A DNA stretch of 64,000 nucleotides from Cyanidioschyzon merolae (taxonomy: Eukaryota), in assembly GCA_000091205.1 (NCBI GenBank), contig AP006488.2. One strand, written 5' to 3'. Positions within the stretch are counted from its first letter, which is position 1; every line of letters begins with the position of its first letter. The notes beneath the pieces are model-generated. The model did no database searches. It worked only from the letters and a program-made list of their open reading frames with translations, and had not been told where the DNA came from. The translations under genes and the position numbers were made by a program. Below, piece by piece: positions 22,378-63,019 of this stretch.

Positions 22378-23793
22378 TCATGAGGTCACAGGCGGCAACC
22401 TGTTTTTCCCGTGGATGAAAAAGCAGTATGGATGACGATACCGATACTCATGCCAGCGATACGGTTCGTTTCCGAGATTGTGAATAAACTCGATCTGGGC
22501 AAAATACTGCAGTCGAAATGATCGATCCCAGAACTCCTCTGTGCTGGCAAAAAGCTGCCGATCAATCGCAACATCAAACGCCGCAGAGCGGTGACGATTC
22601 CAGACTCGCCACAGCCATCGACAGAAATCCAAGTCACCTACTCGATAGAGCGCATTTCCGTTCATCTGCGTTCGATGCGCATCTTGGTGGTACTGCAGTC
22701 GCCAGGAGATGCGTGCATCCAGGTTGGTGCTTCGCAGCGGAGAGCCCAGCATCCACAGACGACGAGCATCCGCGAGCGCTACGATCCGACGAAGCGCATC
22801 ATTGTACTGCGCTTGCACCGCATTGCAGTCTGGTTCGCACCAAAACAAGTATCGTACTCGGGGTAGACTCGTGGACTCATGTGGACCACTAAAGATGCTT
22901 CGCTGCGATGACTGTCGCCCCAGGGACAATCGATGGAAGCGCAGCGCCCTGTGTTCCGTGTTCATCCAGGGCTCTGCGGAGCGTTCAGCCGGCTTGCCGC
23001 CAGCGGCGGCCAGGCTCAGAGCAAACACCAAAGGATAGAACATACTGCCGGTGCCTGCAGAGTCACGTTCGGAAAGCCATGAGCTAGGCCTGTAACGATC
23101 AGCAGTGCTGTCCAGACGCGCCTCGATGAGGTACACACCATGATCCAAACAGGAAGGCCATGTTGGAGCTGTCGCTTTTCGGAGCGCGTCGACGACACGA
23201 AGGTAGAGGTCGCTATCCCAGATTGTGTTGATATAAAACGCCAACACTGTTTGACTCGAAGTGCGCTCTGCAGTCTCTACCGGGCAAGCTAGTGGAAGAT
23301 TCCAGTGAATCCACCGCTCAACTGCCTCGAATTGATGTTTTGCAAACGGCACAACAATCACTTGCCCACGGGCATGCGTCTGCCGCATCGACGACGACCT
23401 ATCCATCGAAGATCGCTTCATGGAATCAGGAATATCCTCGCTTACTCTCCGATGCAGAATGTGTTGAGGCGTTAGAAGAGTCCATGGAAAGCTCTCGTTG
23501 AACCAGGCGTTACCAGGTGCTACCATGAACGCGTTTCGGGGCGTTGCGGCGTTCCATGGACTGCTCCCGTTATACCATGCAGTCGCAGTCGCCGGTCCCT
23601 CGCTGCCGCTAGACTGCAGAACGGCATATGGTGATAGGAGACGCACCATACCCCACTGCTTATCGCGCTGGTCAAGGTTTCGGTTCTCTATACCCGCCAA
23701 GTCGTGCGTGAACAACCCCGCGCGGTGAAAGAAAAGGATTCGCGTCAGCAATATCTTACACAGTTGTAAGAAAACACGCCAGCAGCGCTTCAT
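22378..23793 (-). CDS. Hypothetical signal-anchored (type II membrane) protein, possible Golgi glycosyltransferase-like; function unassigned
   Basis: 471-aa ORF with real ATG. N-terminal hydrophobic anchor WRVFLQLCKILLTRILFF. N-x-S/T sites. Trp/Arg-rich luminal domain. No family recognised. Confidence 0.5.
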   Translation of the reverse strand: MKRCWRVFLQLCKILLTRILFFHRAGLFTHDLAGIENRNLDQRDKQWGMVRLLSPYAVLQSSGSEGPATATAWYNGSSPWNAATPRNAFMVAPGNAWFNESFPWTLLTPQHILHRRVSEDIPDSMKRSSMDRSSSMRQTHARGQVIVVPFAKHQFEAVERWIHWNLPLACPVETAERTSSQTVLAFYINTIWDSDLYLRVVDALRKATAPTWPSCLDHGVYLIEARLDSTADRYRPSSWLSERDSAGTGSMFYPLVFALSLAAAGGKPAERSAEPWMNTEHRALRFHRLSLGRQSSQRSIFSGPHESTSLPRVRYLFWCEPDCNAVQAQYNDALRRIVALADARRLWMLGSPLRSTNLDARISWRLQYHQDAHRTQMNGNALYRVGDLDFCRWLWRVWNRHRSAAFDVAIDRQLFASTEEFWDRSFRLQYFAQIEFIHNLGNEPYRWHEYRYRHPYCFFIHGKNRLPPVTS

Positions 23794-45795: not shown

Positions 45796-46941
45796 ATGTG
45801 GCCAGAAACACTCAGCGAAACACCGCTCTGGAAACGGGTACGTTTTGAGGAGCGCTTGTCGATATCTCCAGCTGTGCTGCAAGGTCCAAAAACTGTCTTC
45901 AACGCGATCTACCGCAGTCTATTCAACCGACTTTTTCGTTACGACCCGCTTCTGCAGGGAACCGTGGTGTCGTTGCGTGCGGTACCTGGCGCCGCACTGG
46001 ATCCACTGCACAAGCGTCGGGCAAACACGTACACCGCTGCAGAACCAAAACTCGACCTAGAGGTTACGGATCGAGGGTTTTTCCATGTTCGGCTCCATGT
46101 GGAGGCTCTTGTTTTCTCTCCGCCGGTGGTTGATGGCGAAGCATCGATCGTTGTGAAGAATGGAACCCGGACGCGGCAGCTTCCTCGATTGTATGGTCGA
46201 GTCGTATTTCTCGGCACGCGGCATGTTGCACTACGAGTGTTTGGTATTTTTCACGCAGCCATTAGCGTGGATGATTTTCCGGGAGAATATCGACGAGAGC
46301 ATGACCGATGGATACCGTTAGCAGTAGATGCCCCAGGTGTCGACTTATCGGAGAAACAAGTTCGTGTCGGGGACGTGCTCTGTTTTGAGGTGAAAGATCT
46401 CCAGCACGCGTCCAATGGTATCTTTGTGATCCGAGGAGGGGTTCCCGTCCCCGATGCAAACTGCGTGGAGACGACGCCGGCCCCGGGAGCACCACAAGCT
46501 GATACCACAACGCGCCCTCTAGAGTATACGCTTCCGGATTACGAGGCACTTCACGATGAGTTACTTCGGAACCAAGTCGAGCGATTCCTCACGGCTGCCT
46601 GGCGCGCGTCGACGCTGGGCGACCATGTGGACATCGCGACGTTCCAGGAGCTTGTGAGCCTGGAAATACCAGGTCACGATGGAGCTGCAAAGCTACCACG
46701 AACCACGACAGATACGGAGACGAATCTGGGGGTTATCAGACTCACTGCGGACGCTATTGACCGCGAAATCATATGGGACGCTGATAGCGATAGCATTTCC
46801 GAAAACAGCACCGCTCACGAGGATCCGTCGGCGTCGAAACTCGAAGCCCTATCCGGAGAGTTCTTCACATTGGGGAACGCTGACTCGGACCCGCTGGCAG
46901 AGCTTGTAGCTGCTTCACGTGGGCACCCCACAGTCGGGTAG
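45796..46941 (+). CDS. Putative Rpb7/RPA43-like RNA polymerase subunit (tentative); acidic C-terminal tail
   Basis: Real ATG. Rpb7-N-like FHVRLHVEALVFSP followed by S1-like VRVGDVLCFEVKDLQHASNGIFVIRGG. Assignment by pattern only. Confidence 0.4.
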   Translation: MWPETLSETPLWKRVRFEERLSISPAVLQGPKTVFNAIYRSLFNRLFRYDPLLQGTVVSLRAVPGAALDPLHKRRANTYTAAEPKLDLEVTDRGFFHVRLHVEALVFSPPVVDGEASIVVKNGTRTRQLPRLYGRVVFLGTRHVALRVFGIFHAAISVDDFPGEYRREHDRWIPLAVDAPGVDLSEKQVRVGDVLCFEVKDLQHASNGIFVIRGGVPVPDANCVETTPAPGAPQADTTTRPLEYTLPDYEALHDELLRNQVERFLTAAWRASTLGDHVDIATFQELVSLEIPGHDGAAKLPRTTTDTETNLGVIRLTADAIDREIIWDADSDSISENSTAHEDPSASKLEALSGEFFTLGNADSDPLAELVAASRGHPTVG

Positions 46942-55660: not shown

Positions 55661-55718
55661 TTCCAAGTGCTCGTGCCGTGTCGGCCGGCTCGTGGTCATC
55701 ATCTTGCACATCTTCTGT

Positions 55719-57968
55719 ATGGAGTTACCGAGCGTCCAAGAAAATGCGGTAGCGACGCTGGGCGGACGGCGGAACTCCAAGTCGCGAAAGAGCCGTAGGG
55801 TGCCGAGTCGAGCACCGTCGACATCCTCGCTGTCAGATGAGGCGAGCTCGCTACGATCCACAGAGCGTAGACGAGGGCGGACTAGCCTTGGATCGCCGTC
55901 ACTATCAACGTTAGATCATGATGAGCAGGGTCCTGTGCGAGCGGGAATCGATGTTACGCTCAAACAAAGTGCGACGACGAACTCGGGCGATAGAGTTCAT
56001 TTTGGTGTACCGCCAGCGTCGCCGATGACGGAGCGAGCCGCATCCCAGGTACAGGGCGCCTCCAATGCGCATGGAGAAGAACTACGTCCTACACAACGCT
56101 ATGGGACCGGTCTTATATCAGGAGAGCGGTTTCGAGTCCCGGTAACACGAACCATGGCGGCTCTCGTTTTCGATGTTAGAAACTGGGGTCCTCTGGAGTT
56201 CGTGGTGCACGCCTTGTTCCTGGTCCAGCTCTTTGCGACATTCTGGGTGTTTCCACGACTGGACCCACTGTGCACCGATGCGTTGAGCGGCTCCTGCGCG
56301 GCTGGTGTCATTTCCTCTGTGATGCTCTTTCTCAGTTGGCGACTGGCGTACAACGTAGGGCTTGGCTGGCTCTTGCGTCGGCAGTCCCGTCACGCCGCTA
56401 TTACCCATTGGTGGGCAGGTCTGTCCCCGAAATGGAAGCGAATTATTCGCAGATGCTTTCGCAGTTCGCTCTTGCCGGATGAACGGGTAGCGTCGCGAGC
56501 TCGCTACGGACCATCGCCACCTTGGCCAGTTGATTTCGAAGCCTGGGCCGCTTTCCGATGTCTTGCGACCATCGTCTTGGCAAATGACGGCTGGTCGTAC
56601 CTGTTGCTCTGCTGCAGAGTGTTCCACTTTCCATGGATAGAGCGCTGGTATGCGAGGCCGGATGTCTGGCTCTGCTACCTCTTGGGCGTTGCGCTGATCG
56701 CATTTTCGCTCTGGGCAAAAGCGAGTGCGCATCGCGTGGTGGGTGACTTTGCCTGGTATTGGGGCGACTTTTTTTTCATCATGGAAGGTGAGCTCACTTT
56801 CGATGGCGTGTTTGAGCTTTTCCCCCATCCAATGTACACTGTCGGATATACTGCATACTACGGCTTTAGTTTGATATGCCGCTCGTACACTTTGCTGATT
56901 GCGTCGCTCATCGCACACATGTCTCAGCTGCTCTTTCTCATGAGCGTGGAGGAGCCCCATATCGAAAAAACATACGGCCCGAGCGAGAGGGCGCAGAGCC
57001 CCTCCTGTGCTGCAGAAAGCGTCTCTCCTGAGCGCATCTGCACCGTGTCATGCTGTTCCCGAAACAAAATCGAAAAGGAAGCTGTGGTCCTGGCGAATCT
57101 GGACCCGTTTCGAAATTCGGATCTGTCTCTGCTCATTATGGCGTGTATGACAATCTTTACGCCGGCCCTATCGGGATGGACGCTTACATCTCGATACTAT
57201 GCAATGCAGGTCGTTGGCTGGATGGTCTTCCATTGGTGTGGTCTCGGCACTGTACTCTATCTCCAGAGTACTCGGCGCTGGTGGACACGGCATTTCGAAC
57301 AGCGAGGCCACTGTGCGGCTGAAGCCTTTCGCCAATGGCAGCGGACGTTCAACATGAGCCTTGTGATGAACCACCTGGTATTTGTGATGCTCGCGCTTCA
57401 CGACGCCCAACCGATCCGAATTCCTTCCGTTTGGTCGCTGGTTTCCGGTCGCACTGCGGCGCTCGTCGGCGGGTCTGCTCTTATCATCGTGGGAGCGTCG
57501 TCTTCTATTTCCGCATATCGGATTCTCGGAGATTACGGCTGGTTCTACGGAGACTTTTTTCTCGAACCGTGTGCGTTGTCGAACCATCAGGGGCCTTGGA
57601 AACGACCCGCATCGGTTGAAGCTTCTCTGCGCCCGTCATACGCGGGTATTTATCGGTATTTGAACAACCCTGATTGTGTGCTGGGCTACCTCTGGATGTA
57701 CGGGCTGAGTCTAGCCACTGAAAGCTGGCGGGCGTTCTGGTTCGCGGTTTGTTCCCAAGCGCTTCATGTCTTGTTCTTGGTGCTGGTAGAGGTCCCGCAT
57801 ATGCACCGCACGTATGGGCCGCACTGTCGACGTGCAGCAGCGCTGGAACTGCTCTTACGTCGCCAAGTGCAACGCATTCGTGACCAGCCGCTGCTTCGGG
57901 AGGTAACTTGCAAAGTTGAAGCGCGCGTTGATGAGCTGCGCGGCCGGCTCCTGCACAAGTATCGATAG
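55719..57968 (+). CDS. CHO2: Phosphatidylethanolamine N-methyltransferase, Cho2-type with two PEMT-like domains
   Basis: HRVVGDFAWYWGDFFFIMEGELTFDGVFELFPHPMYTVGYTAYYG...EEPHIEKTYG, and a second copy FGWFYGDFFL...RYLNNPDCVLGY...VEVPHMHRTYG, both close to yeast Cho2. The track start is GTG, and the first ATG (MELPSV) is at 55719. Confidence 0.8.
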   Translation: MELPSVQENAVATLGGRRNSKSRKSRRVPSRAPSTSSLSDEASSLRSTERRRGRTSLGSPSLSTLDHDEQGPVRAGIDVTLKQSATTNSGDRVHFGVPPASPMTERAASQVQGASNAHGEELRPTQRYGTGLISGERFRVPVTRTMAALVFDVRNWGPLEFVVHALFLVQLFATFWVFPRLDPLCTDALSGSCAAGVISSVMLFLSWRLAYNVGLGWLLRRQSRHAAITHWWAGLSPKWKRIIRRCFRSSLLPDERVASRARYGPSPPWPVDFEAWAAFRCLATIVLANDGWSYLLLCCRVFHFPWIERWYARPDVWLCYLLGVALIAFSLWAKASAHRVVGDFAWYWGDFFFIMEGELTFDGVFELFPHPMYTVGYTAYYGFSLICRSYTLLIASLIAHMSQLLFLMSVEEPHIEKTYGPSERAQSPSCAAESVSPERICTVSCCSRNKIEKEAVVLANLDPFRNSDLSLLIMACMTIFTPALSGWTLTSRYYAMQVVGWMVFHWCGLGTVLYLQSTRRWWTRHFEQRGHCAAEAFRQWQRTFNMSLVMNHLVFVMLALHDAQPIRIPSVWSLVSGRTAALVGGSALIIVGASSSISAYRILGDYGWFYGDFFLEPCALSNHQGPWKRPASVEASLRPSYAGIYRYLNNPDCVLGYLWMYGLSLATESWRAFWFAVCSQALHVLFLVLVEVPHMHRTYGPHCRRAAALELLLRRQVQRIRDQPLLREVTCKVEARVDELRGRLLHKYR

Positions 57969-60695: not shown

Positions 60696-62003
60696 TCACT
60701 CGGAGTTGGGCATGGACCGCTTCAGGTGGCTGCGCAAAATGGTCAAATGCTCTTCTTTGATTTTCTCCGGCGCCAGATGGGAACGCCACTCACGCGCTAA
60801 CAACGAGCGTAGAATCAGGAGCTCATCCACGAAATCGCTCGGCATGAAACCGACGCTCTTTTCGGTGCGTGCACCGACACCTTCGCGTTCGACGACTCGA
60901 TCATGGTTTTCGACAAAGAATTTCTGGCCTTCGCAGCGGACGTTGCCAAGACGCAAAAGAGAACGGATAAAGTCGTCGCCGTCCCCAATTTCCTCTTCCC
61001 AACGCGGCCACTTGCTCAACCATTCATGTTCAGCATGACGTCCTTCGAAACGTAGACGATTCAGGAAACGCACAGTCGCTCTTCTCGTCAAGAGCGCCTT
61101 CACGTAGCGATAGTTGTGGTACCGGAGCGGGGACTCATCCGTCGTAAAATCGTCATGGTCTAGAATACGCTGGGCCTGATGCGCCTGACCACTCTGTTCA
61201 TGTACCAGTTCGGAGAGTATTTCACTGTTTTCAACGCTCACCAACCCGAGATCCCGACGCAACTCTTCCGCAATGGACTCGCGGGCCGCCATGATACGCT
61301 GCGCGTAGCGAAACGGTTCCAGAGTAAAAGTGAACTCGCGTCGAATACGCGTCCCGACAACCATCGTGTGCATCTCCGAGGGCGCCGACATCATCCCACT
61401 CAGGTACTCAACAGTGTTCCGAAGAAAATGGTATGCTTGCTCGTGACGTCGAGAACCAATGGAGGCTCCACCGAACCACTTCCCATAGTCGTCAAAATCC
61501 AGCAGCCAACGCCGCGCTGGCTCGTCCCGAAACTCCGTGAGATAGTAGATGATCGTTCGCACTGCTCGGTCTGTGGCAAAGTCTCGGATCAGGTTTGCGT
61601 CAGTATCGTGCGCTGGCGTACTGGCACAGATAGATCGAACACGCTGCCCGGAGGTACGCGCGCCACCAAACGAAACGCTGGCGTTCTTGTGCTCCTCCAG
61701 CGTTCCCTGGTCTACCGCGTAGCCCTGCTCTTGCCGCCCGTTTCCTTCGTTGGTGGATTCACGTGCTCCCTCTGAGTCCGAGCCCTCACCAAGCACACAC
61801 TTTAGTGAATGGATCTGCTCCGCGCACGGCTGCCGTCCAAGTCGTGTTCCGGTTCGTCCAGCTGGGATAGGTCTCCAGTGACGCCGTCGCCCAGTGCTGG
61901 GGCAGCGCACAGCGCCCGTTGACGTTGCCACCCACGCGCACCGCGAGAAAGCGCCCCGAGAAAACCGCAATGGAGATGCGCTAAACTGAACAATATCCGT
62001 CAT
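60696..62003 (-). CDS. RbcX-like domain protein with transit-peptide-like N-terminus and ~200-aa uncharacterised C-terminal extension (435 aa)
   Basis: HEQAYHFLRNTVEY ... YAQRIMAARESIAEELRRDL resembles the RbcX core (cyanobacterial LALRIMTVREHIAEE; plant HDGHAFLEALMRE). N-terminus is Ser/Thr/Arg/Gly-rich. Real ATG at 62001-62003. Confidence 0.45.
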   Translation of the reverse strand: MTDIVQFSASPLRFSRGAFSRCAWVATSTGAVRCPSTGRRRHWRPIPAGRTGTRLGRQPCAEQIHSLKCVLGEGSDSEGARESTNEGNGRQEQGYAVDQGTLEEHKNASVSFGGARTSGQRVRSICASTPAHDTDANLIRDFATDRAVRTIIYYLTEFRDEPARRWLLDFDDYGKWFGGASIGSRRHEQAYHFLRNTVEYLSGMMSAPSEMHTMVVGTRIRREFTFTLEPFRYAQRIMAARESIAEELRRDLGLVSVENSEILSELVHEQSGQAHQAQRILDHDDFTTDESPLRYHNYRYVKALLTRRATVRFLNRLRFEGRHAEHEWLSKWPRWEEEIGDGDDFIRSLLRLGNVRCEGQKFFVENHDRVVEREGVGARTEKSVGFMPSDFVDELLILRSLLAREWRSHLAPEKIKEEHLTILRSHLKRSMPNSE

Positions 62004-63019
62004 GACTTTGAACTAAAAAACAATGAGAAAGCGTTGATCGTAGAAAACACACAGACGCGAAACCTCCGCTCCAGCGAAATAACTGTCGCGAATATATACC
62101 CAAAATCCTGGTACGTTTATCTGCTGGCGCTGGTGCTGCTGGTGCTTGTGCTGCCAACGGATTTTGGCGCTGCTGAATGCACGCGCGCCAAGGCGCCTCG
62201 CCCACGCGCAGATCTGAACGCTGCGGTTGAAATGCCCGGCGCAGCAGCAGCGCAGATTCGAGCATTGCGCGGGAAAGCTGCAGAGCGCGCGCGCGCGCGC
62301 AAGCATCGTACGGTGCACCCGTATACAGCGACGCAATGGACAGCGTTGTTGAATCCAGGTGCGTACATGATATCGTTTGGGTTTCATCCTATTATCGTGA
62401 ACGAGAGGTTTGAAGGCCTCCTTGTGGGAGCTTCCTGTTTCCGGTTTCATATCTGCTGCTGTCATTCCGCCAGTCTCTGCTTTACTACTAGTTCCGTTAT
62501 CAGCTGTTGAAAAAACGCGGTTACCGCAGCATCATATCGTCCTGATTTTGCTACTTCCGGTTGTTGTTTATGCATCTCATGCCGAGACGGTAGTTAGGAT
62601 CTAGATTCGGTTGCAGTTCGCGTCCTGTATGAGAACAGCCTCGGTGGAATCAATGCAGCGGCGATTCTTGACAGTGGTTAAATGTTCCTGGGTAGGCGGC
62701 GCACATCCTCCATCGAGCGCTGCAGTCCAGCGCCCGAACGCGTGCTTCATCGCTCGGGTTGCGTCCTGGACGGGAATGGAAGGCCCGGGTCGATGCCCTC
62801 CTATGATTCCGCGTATGGTGCCGTACGCTCTGGGTAGGGACTTCATTTTCAGGGTGCCCTCGGCGAGTAATTTTTCAGCTGCACTCGCAAGCACATAATA
62901 TCCCATCCGATGCGAAATTTTTTGAAGGCGATGTTGTTTATGATGAAACCTGAACCCCAAATGAAAATCTAGCCTGGAGATCAGATCGAGAAACGTCGTT
63001 TCGTCGACGCTTCATTACT

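Follow-up and report, generated by a model that had tools for sequence, protein, structure and literature searches.

Why should a red alga encode a protein that resembles RbcX, an assembly chaperone that occurs with green-type (form IB) RuBisCO? The question arises from an open reading frame (ORF) at 60696..62003 on the minus strand of the window (the whole stretch of DNA that was analysed, 64,000 nucleotides long). According to the ORF list it is complete and intronless, starting with ATG and encoding 435 residues before the stop codon, and it matches CYME_CMF092C of Cyanidioschyzon merolae 10D (CMF092C below), annotated as a hypothetical protein, with 100% identity and 100% coverage; because of this identity we take the window to be nuclear DNA of C. 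merolae. A preliminary description of the locus had recognised an RbcX-like module in the N-terminal part, preceded by a transit-peptide-like leader and carrying an insertion between its helices, and had proposed that this module is fused to an uncharacterised C-terminal domain of ~200 residues in a host with form-IB RuBisCO. The host assignment does not hold, as C. merolae is a red alga and rhodophytes carry red-type form ID RuBisCO (review PMC9833100), and neither does the foreign domain: we are very nearly certain that CMF092C combines the RbcX fold with an internal duplication. On balance we also lean towards the view that it is a nuclear-encoded, probably plastid-targeted, single-chain pseudo-dimeric RbcX that acts on the red-type large subunit, RbcL.

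Searches with CMF092C by itself give a faint signal. RbcX (PF02341) is its sole Pfam match, covering residues 134-172 only and scoring 19.8-21.7 bits (E 1e-3 to 2.6e-4), which is under the gathering score of 27 bits, the curated cut-off of that family; phmmer with CMF092C alone found nothing among the PDB sequences, and a profile of four Cyanidiales sequences found nothing meaningful there. The family as a whole gives a clear one. A word-indexed protein search returned relatives at 55-74% identity from three other Cyanidiales (Cyanidiococcus, a JGI sequence and Cyanidium), and when 1.84 billion representative proteins were searched exhaustively by HMMER, the Cyanidiales profile matched 153 at E<=1e-3, of which 45 reached E<=1e-10; most of the 153 are 300-400 residues long and align across most of the core. 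The Pfam RbcX family matches 27 of 68 aligned members (best E 2.8e-15) and no other family recurs; orthologues at or above the cut-off come from Porphyridium (44.6 bits), Madagascaria (40.1), Compsopogon (39.4), Galdieria (27.6) and Fibrocapsa (27.3). When the 68-sequence profile was run against all PDB sequences, the matches were to RbcX chains only (2PY8 at 8.5e-9, 2PEO at 1.5e-7 and 7XSD at 1.6e-7, with weaker matches to 3Q20, 2PEJ/2PEM and AtRbcX2). The N-terminal resemblance noted earlier is thus borne out and the homology of CMF092C to RbcX is real; the preliminary description had also considered a different helical family, and none but RbcX recurs in either the Pfam or the PDB profile searches.

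Structure prediction leads to the same fold. An AlphaFold2 (AF2) run with four sequences reached a predicted local distance difference test (pLDDT) score of 48 and was discarded; with the 123-sequence alignment that was used instead, the model of residues 113-435 has a mean pLDDT of 87.0 and a predicted template modelling score (pTM) of 0.86 over 323 residues. It shows the RbcX-type fold, in which four helices form a bundle and the last of them is long and kinked. A Foldseek comparison of the model with the PDB gave no significant match, an RbcX chain coming up only in 25th place at E 6. Together with the sub-threshold Pfam score, this result could speak for a chance helical resemblance, or even for a non-coding ORF, but the 55-74% identity in three other Cyanidiales, the 153 remote homologues and a regulated transcript (see below) exclude such an explanation, and we give it a vanishingly small probability.

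The C-terminal half proved to be a second copy of the same module. RbcX chains matched the 68-sequence profile at two separate places in the PDB search, and when the family alignment was divided at residue 291, in the conserved SPLR motif, and the halves were compared by hhalign, they aligned with each other over 125 columns (probability 99.0%, E 5.4e-18, 123-sequence alignment); independent alignments of 16 and 17 sequences gave 99.25% and E 5.3e-20 over 113 columns. Each half on its own recovers RbcX from the PDB and nothing else: the module-2 profile matches 2PY8 at 8.4e-8, 2PEO at 1.7e-7 (RbcX residues 32-128), 7XSD at 2.1e-7 and the plant proteins AtRbcX1 and AtRbcX2 at 1.5e-4 and 5.3e-4, the next match having an E of 0.5, and the module-1 profile gives matches at 4.2e-6, 5.9e-6 and 5.7e-4. 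Because the halves align and the C-terminal half alone matches only RbcX, we read the C-terminal ~140 residues as a second, diverged RbcX module on the strength of these profile comparisons. Both modules are spanned by 104 of the 123 homologues, the search for orthologues of the same architecture having thus succeeded, and the tandem architecture therefore defines the family. What had been called an unusual RbcX architecture is indeed unusual and belongs to a genuine homologue; its fusion partner, however, is not foreign but RbcX again. The Pfam search with CMF092C alone, which finds one short match at residues 134-172 and none in the C-terminal half, would favour a single RbcX module beside an unrelated ~200-residue domain in a form-IB host, but this model is excluded by the homology between the halves, the RbcX match of the C-terminal one and the red-algal host, and the probability we leave to it is very slight.

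The anatomy of the protein can be described accordingly from the N-terminus, all features lying on the minus strand. The leader, residues 1-112 (61668..62003), is poorly conserved, and conservation among the Cyanidiales starts at about residue 113. By the composition of the translation, its first ~60 residues are basic and hydroxyl-rich (Arg/Ser/Thr/Gly-rich, with one acidic residue) and include an N-terminal 'IxQF' Phe motif common to the orthologues; residues ~72-110 form an acidic low-complexity stretch. RbcX-like module 1 spans residues 134-272 (61188..61604), with helices α1 at 135-157, α2 at 161-178, α3 at 197-206 and α4 at 230-252, continuing at 255-271; the two motifs quoted in the preliminary description, HEQAYHFLRNTVEY and YAQRIMAARESIAEEL, are residues 187-200 and 233-248 of CMF092C. 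The insertion that had been noticed between the helices is seen in the AF2 model as a β-hairpin, residues 210-228 (61320..61376), between α3 and α4 (strands E98-104 and E110-116 in core numbering, pLDDT >90), and it ends in a near-invariant [YF]224-x3-[ILV]228-E229-P230, with P230 in 121/123 and Y/F224 in 110/122 sequences. The inter-module linker, residues 273-292 (61128..61187), has no regular secondary structure in the AF2 model and its pLDDT falls to 74-81; at its end, [ST]-P-L-R (residues 291-294, with P292 in 110/120 and R294 in 116/120) opens module 2. This module spans residues 293-431 (60711..61127), with helices at 294-319, 323-331, 342-351 and 389-409, the last continuing at 412-430. 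At the same α3/α4 position it carries a second insertion, β-strands within residues 355-386 (60846..60941; AF2 strands E243-246, 249-254, 257-262 and 272-274, core numbering). This insertion holds an extra β segment of ~15 residues, FFVENHDRVVEREGV (residues 362-376, window 60876-60920), which is found in 4-5 of 123 sequences, chiefly close Cyanidiales orthologues, the column occupancy at residues 364-376 being 4-5/123. HMMER alignments to RbcX skip both β insertions.

Two side observations concern the first insertion. The second strand of the hairpin (region of residues 220-228, window 61320-61346) contains REFTFTLEP at residues 222-230, which is invariant in the Cyanidiales and has the family consensus RE[YF]xxxIEP. 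It bears a loose likeness to the RbcL tail bound by RbcX (EIKFEFD in the green type, DITFNY in the red type), and could be an internal pseudo-substrate, or the likeness could be coincidental. In the non-rhodophyte (ochrophyte) subfamily, the same insertion has a conserved G-G-S-G-N-N-P-[YF] loop (alignment A5, columns ~98-110, for example in P0021, P0023 and P0175) that is absent from the red-algal members, a distribution that suggests subfamily-specific surfaces.

The most conserved positions of the family recur in both modules. The LTxxA pattern of helix 1 is L143-T144-x-x-A147 in module 1 and L304-x-T306-x-x-A309 in module 2, and the WL of helix 2 is W166-L167 and W328-L329, respectively. 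Helix 4 starts with P-x3-A (P230-x3-A234 and P388-x3-A392) and continues with R-x3-A-x-E-W, found as R241-x3-A245-x-E247-[WL]248 in module 1 and as R399-x3-A403-x-E405-W406 in module 2.

Canonical RbcX, a protein of ~15 kDa with four helices, is active only once two identical chains have paired. The central groove of the dimer holds the C-terminal RbcL motif EIKFEFD, with the tyrosines Y17 and Y20 holding Phe residues of RbcL, and the corner residues Q29, E32 and R70 contact the adjacent RbcL and are needed for assembly of RbcL8. Clamping by RbcX keeps RbcL2 and RbcL8 stable until RbcX is displaced by the small subunit, RbcS. This mechanism of groove and corner clamp reportedly goes back to work by Saschenbrecker in 2007 and Liu in 2010. 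CMF092C positions were mapped via HMMER alignments onto Synechococcus 7002 RbcX, whose numbering we take to be the one in use for Y17, Y20, Q29, E32, R70, R75 and E76. Module 1 keeps the equivalents of E32 (E157, conserved in 76/112), R75 (R241, 109/123) and E76 (E242, 89/123); its R70 equivalent is R236, with R in 68/123 sequences plus 27 Q and 11 K, and its Q29 equivalent is Y154. Module 2 keeps R75 alone (R399, 109/111). Because the modules are only ~13-14% identical and differ in these key residues, the two halves would seem to be functionally asymmetric.

How might such a protein work? We propose that the two head-to-tail RbcX modules fold back on each other to give a single-chain pseudo-dimer. 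This is the simplest reading because the two fused modules are predicted as one compact unit, the pTM of 0.86 implying for the model that they pack confidently against each other. The pseudo-dimer would do the job of RbcX for red-type (form ID) RbcL, which has a related tail motif: solved red-type RbcL chains terminate ...LWKDI[TS]FNYTSTDT..., and the tail reads WKDITFNY in the red type and WKEIKFEF in the green type. The aromatic F-x-[FY] thus persists in altered form, and would therefore fit altered groove residues; the candidate groove ligand for the core of CMF092C (residues 113-435) is the RbcL tail peptide, WKDITFNYTSTD / LWKDITFNYTSTDT. Fusion of the modules would permit the halves to diverge, with module 1 retaining the E32, R70, R75 and E76 equivalents and module 2 that of R75 only. 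The β insertions are located immediately before the R70-equivalent position and by homology near the corner surface of RbcX, and the surface that meets the neighbouring RbcL is probably reshaped by them; we speculate that this may suit the clamp to red-type RbcL. The geometry of the pseudo-dimer, its client RbcL and its part as an assembly chaperone are what we infer here, and the function in RbcL assembly, taken by itself, we regard as close to evenly balanced with a slight tilt in its favour.

Family distribution and targeting signals bear on this proposal. Every family member that could be named belongs either to one of several classes of the Rhodophyta (Cyanidioschyzon, Cyanidiococcus, Cyanidium, Galdieria sulphuraria, G. 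partita, Porphyridium, Erythrolobus, Compsopogon and Madagascaria) or to the Ochrophyta (Mallomonas, Chrysoparadoxa, Cladosiphon and Fibrocapsa), that is, to phototrophs with a red-type plastid; about a dozen members, named through look-ups of their clusters, underlie this taxonomy, and most other matches come from transcriptome or metagenome assemblies. In their annotations all nameable members are hypothetical or uncharacterised proteins. At the N-terminus of many non-rhodophyte members, a hydrophobic signal peptide leads into an xxA|F junction (for example SLA|FRP, VSA|FTR and ASA|FAP), the bipartite signal typical of red-derived complex plastids; in the red-algal proteins the first 4-13 residues include a Phe, as is a feature of rhodophyte transit peptides. 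Because of these signals the family looks plastid-targeted across the red plastid lineage. The leader of CMF092C had been likened to a transit peptide, and the basic, hydroxyl-rich first ~60 residues with their conserved N-terminal Phe agree with that: residues ~1-60 are probably a plastid transit peptide, and the protein is probably plastid-targeted. As a side note on gene models, the orthologue P0002 (526 residues, JGI/Logan) has ~93 additional N-terminal residues before the Met that aligns with the start of CMF092C; this surplus is probably an over-extended gene model and not a real extension.

Expression data are available from a study of heat memory in C. merolae, the only paper we found to mention CMF092C, where it appears as an anonymous gene (bioRxiv 10.64898/2026.03.31.715551). 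CMF092C is one of just 15 nuclear genes among the hyperinduced heat-memory genes and is induced alongside 55 chloroplast-encoded ones; it is moreover one of four genes that specifically fail to hyperinduce after priming in a mutant of the Polycomb repressive complex 2 (PRC2) subunit E(z) (same source). Loss of hyperinduction in the E(z) mutant implies that heat memory dependent on trimethylation of histone H3 lysine 27 (H3K27me3) acts on CMF092C. The pattern suits a factor that is needed while plastid proteins are re-made. With <=1 mismatch allowed, the canonical heat-shock element GAAnnTTCnnGAA is about as frequent in the window as chance predicts, and the promoter region 62004-62700 (700 bp upstream) contains none.

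Several points weigh against an RbcX-like pseudo-dimer acting on RbcL. The groove tyrosines are not kept: Y17 corresponds to F142 in module 1 (F48/L36/M9) and to L304 in module 2, and Y20 to D145 (Q46/R15/D7) and to the variable R307. The E32 and R70 equivalents of module 2 are not conserved. The dimer-like arrangement of the modules is a proposal built on the pTM of the model, the plastid localisation is deduced from the leader only, and the sub-threshold Pfam score of CMF092C and the Foldseek result given above count on the same side, as does the fact that the literature searched holds no interaction data for the tandem-RbcX family. Finally, the red-type small subunit has an extension, a β-hairpin, that reportedly does duty for RbcX in form IC enzymes (Joshi et al. 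2015, as cited in reviews), and an RbcX-type staple may therefore be unnecessary in red-type organisms.

The RbcX fold could instead have been repurposed. The red lineage swapped its cyanobacterial RuBisCO for the proteobacterial red-type enzyme, and the duplicated scaffold could have been kept for another plastid client (a different complex or peptide tail, for instance) or as a general heat-stress holdase, with no action on RbcL. The unconserved groove tyrosines and the half of the corner residues that is unconserved fit this explanation, as do the large β insertions that alter surfaces near the RbcX corner and the behaviour of CMF092C as a heat-memory effector alongside small heat-shock proteins; the reported capacity of the red-type RbcS hairpin to replace RbcX function points the same way. 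It fits less well, however, with the restriction of all nameable members to phototrophs with a red-type plastid, with the aromatic F-x-[FY] motif retained in the red-type RbcL tail, or with the E32, R70, R75 and E76 equivalents kept by module 1. We consider repurposing unlikely, although it is the strongest competitor of a role in RbcL assembly.

A third explanation is that CMF092C associates with assembled red-type RuBisCO, for its localisation, condensation, protection or turnover, and takes no part in assembly. Canonical RbcX is displaced by the small subunit and is not bound to the holoenzyme, and to our knowledge C. merolae has no pyrenoid; both argue against such a role. Three members of the family, P0027 (repeats at residues 428 and 448), P0030 (411, 445, 477 and 553) and P0080 (264, 278 and 316), have C-terminal extensions with 2-4 copies of [ST]SW[YF]D.G.RL, reminiscent of short Trp-containing RuBisCO-binding motifs. 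These repeats could be RuBisCO-binding or pyrenoid-targeting stickers, by analogy with the RbcX-like protein of Ulva, but CMF092C and most family members lack them, and nothing matching the motif was found in the literature that could be searched. The Ulva protein UM003_0241 is RbcX-like, has a C-terminal RuBisCO-binding motif and belongs to the pyrenoid matrix (bioRxiv 10.64898/2026.07.16.738900). It resembles CMF092C as a eukaryotic algal RbcX-domain protein of non-canonical architecture, and resembles the few repeat-bearing members in its short C-terminal motif; unlike CMF092C, it is of the green lineage, with green-type RuBisCO, a pyrenoid and an RbcX domain followed by a single RuBisCO-binding motif, and the accessible text makes no mention of a tandem duplication (bioRxiv 10.64898/2026.07.16.738900). 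Association with the finished enzyme in place of assembly therefore strikes us as improbable for CMF092C.

Returning to a single-chain RbcX for red-type RbcL, it is useful to set CMF092C beside the known systems. Compared with the proteins of PF02341 (cyanobacterial RbcX and the plant and green-algal RbcX-I and RbcX-II; 2PEN/2PEO/2PY8/3Q20/4GR2/4GR6/5BS2/7XSD), which are homodimers of identical ~15 kDa chains, CMF092C has two modules in one chain, each with a β insertion of ~20-32 residues between helices 3 and 4; it lacks the conserved Y17/Y20 and keeps corner residues in module 1 only. Its host has red-type form ID RuBisCO, whereas RbcX occurs with green-type form IB, and it is a nuclear gene with unrelated neighbours, whereas RbcX is often found in an rbcL-rbcX-rbcS operon. 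Raf1, a dimeric post-chaperonin factor that brackets antiparallel RbcL dimers, belongs to the functional class proposed for CMF092C but has a fold unrelated to that of RbcX and CMF092C, with no similarity to CMF092C detected. The βE-βF C-terminal hairpin of red-type RbcS ('built-in RbcX') addresses the same RbcL8 step as that proposed for CMF092C; unlike the latter it is a part of the client enzyme and not a chaperone, has no homology to RbcX and was reportedly demonstrated with the Rhodobacter enzyme, which is of form IC (Joshi et al. 2015, as cited in reviews). It is the currently accepted account of how red-type RbcL8 assembles without RbcX.

According to reviews, red-type organisms lack homologues of RbcX, Raf1, Raf2 and BSD2. 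The last three had been put forward in the preliminary description as co-expression partners, which their reported absence does not support. For RbcX, our data show that the stated absence is untrue: a diverged tandem RbcX is conserved across red algae and algae with red-derived plastids. No description of the tandem-RbcX family was found in the literature on RbcX-like proteins or on RbcX in connection with red algae, diatoms, form ID RuBisCO, Phaeodactylum, Galdieria or further genera of the red lineage, in a search that lacks most subscription journals. Some orthologues have probably been flagged already with an RbcX domain by automatic Pfam or InterPro annotation; what is new here is the tandem, insertion-bearing RbcX of the red lineage.

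The surroundings of CMF092C in the window are those of an ordinary eukaryotic locus. Neighbouring ORFs encode a DXP synthase, a PEMT-like methyltransferase, an adaptin, an Hsp70-family protein and an ATP-grasp enzyme, all of them ordinary eukaryotic proteins unrelated to CMF092C, and no tRNA genes were found in the 64-kb window. The ORF of 758 residues at 55692-57968 (+) matches the phospholipid methyltransferase (PEMT) domain in two separate stretches, a tandem PEMT-like architecture that is unusually long for this family. Two further ORFs, at 45796-46941 (+, 381 residues) and 22378-23793 (-, 471 residues), are without a Pfam match at E<=1e-5 and encode further uncharacterised C. merolae proteins.

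What would the tandem RbcX mean for the red plastid lineage? Red-algal form ID RuBisCO has the best CO2/O2 specificities known and is a long-standing target for crop improvement, and it fails to assemble in tobacco or E. coli, for which reviews up to 2026 blame suspected unknown chaperones. CMF092C is a testable candidate for a helper of its assembly, and with gene targeting established in C. merolae, the question of what red-type RuBisCO assembly needs is directly testable. In its most far-reaching form the idea is that the tandem RbcX is the missing lineage-specific assembly chaperone of form ID RuBisCO, that is, an RbcX of the cyanobacterial endosymbiont that survived a swap of its client for the horizontally acquired proteobacterial RuBisCO by duplication, fusion into an asymmetric single-chain dimer and re-tuning of its surface. 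We hold this scenario to be rather unlikely; if it were true, co-expression of the tandem RbcX with cognate chaperonins would be a requirement for assembling red-algal RuBisCO in E. coli or crop chloroplasts. On the reading proposed here, CMF092C would show clearly how an obligate homodimer can turn into a single-chain pseudo-dimer whose halves are asymmetric. It also poses an evolutionary question, namely how an assembly chaperone may survive when its client enzyme is replaced wholesale.

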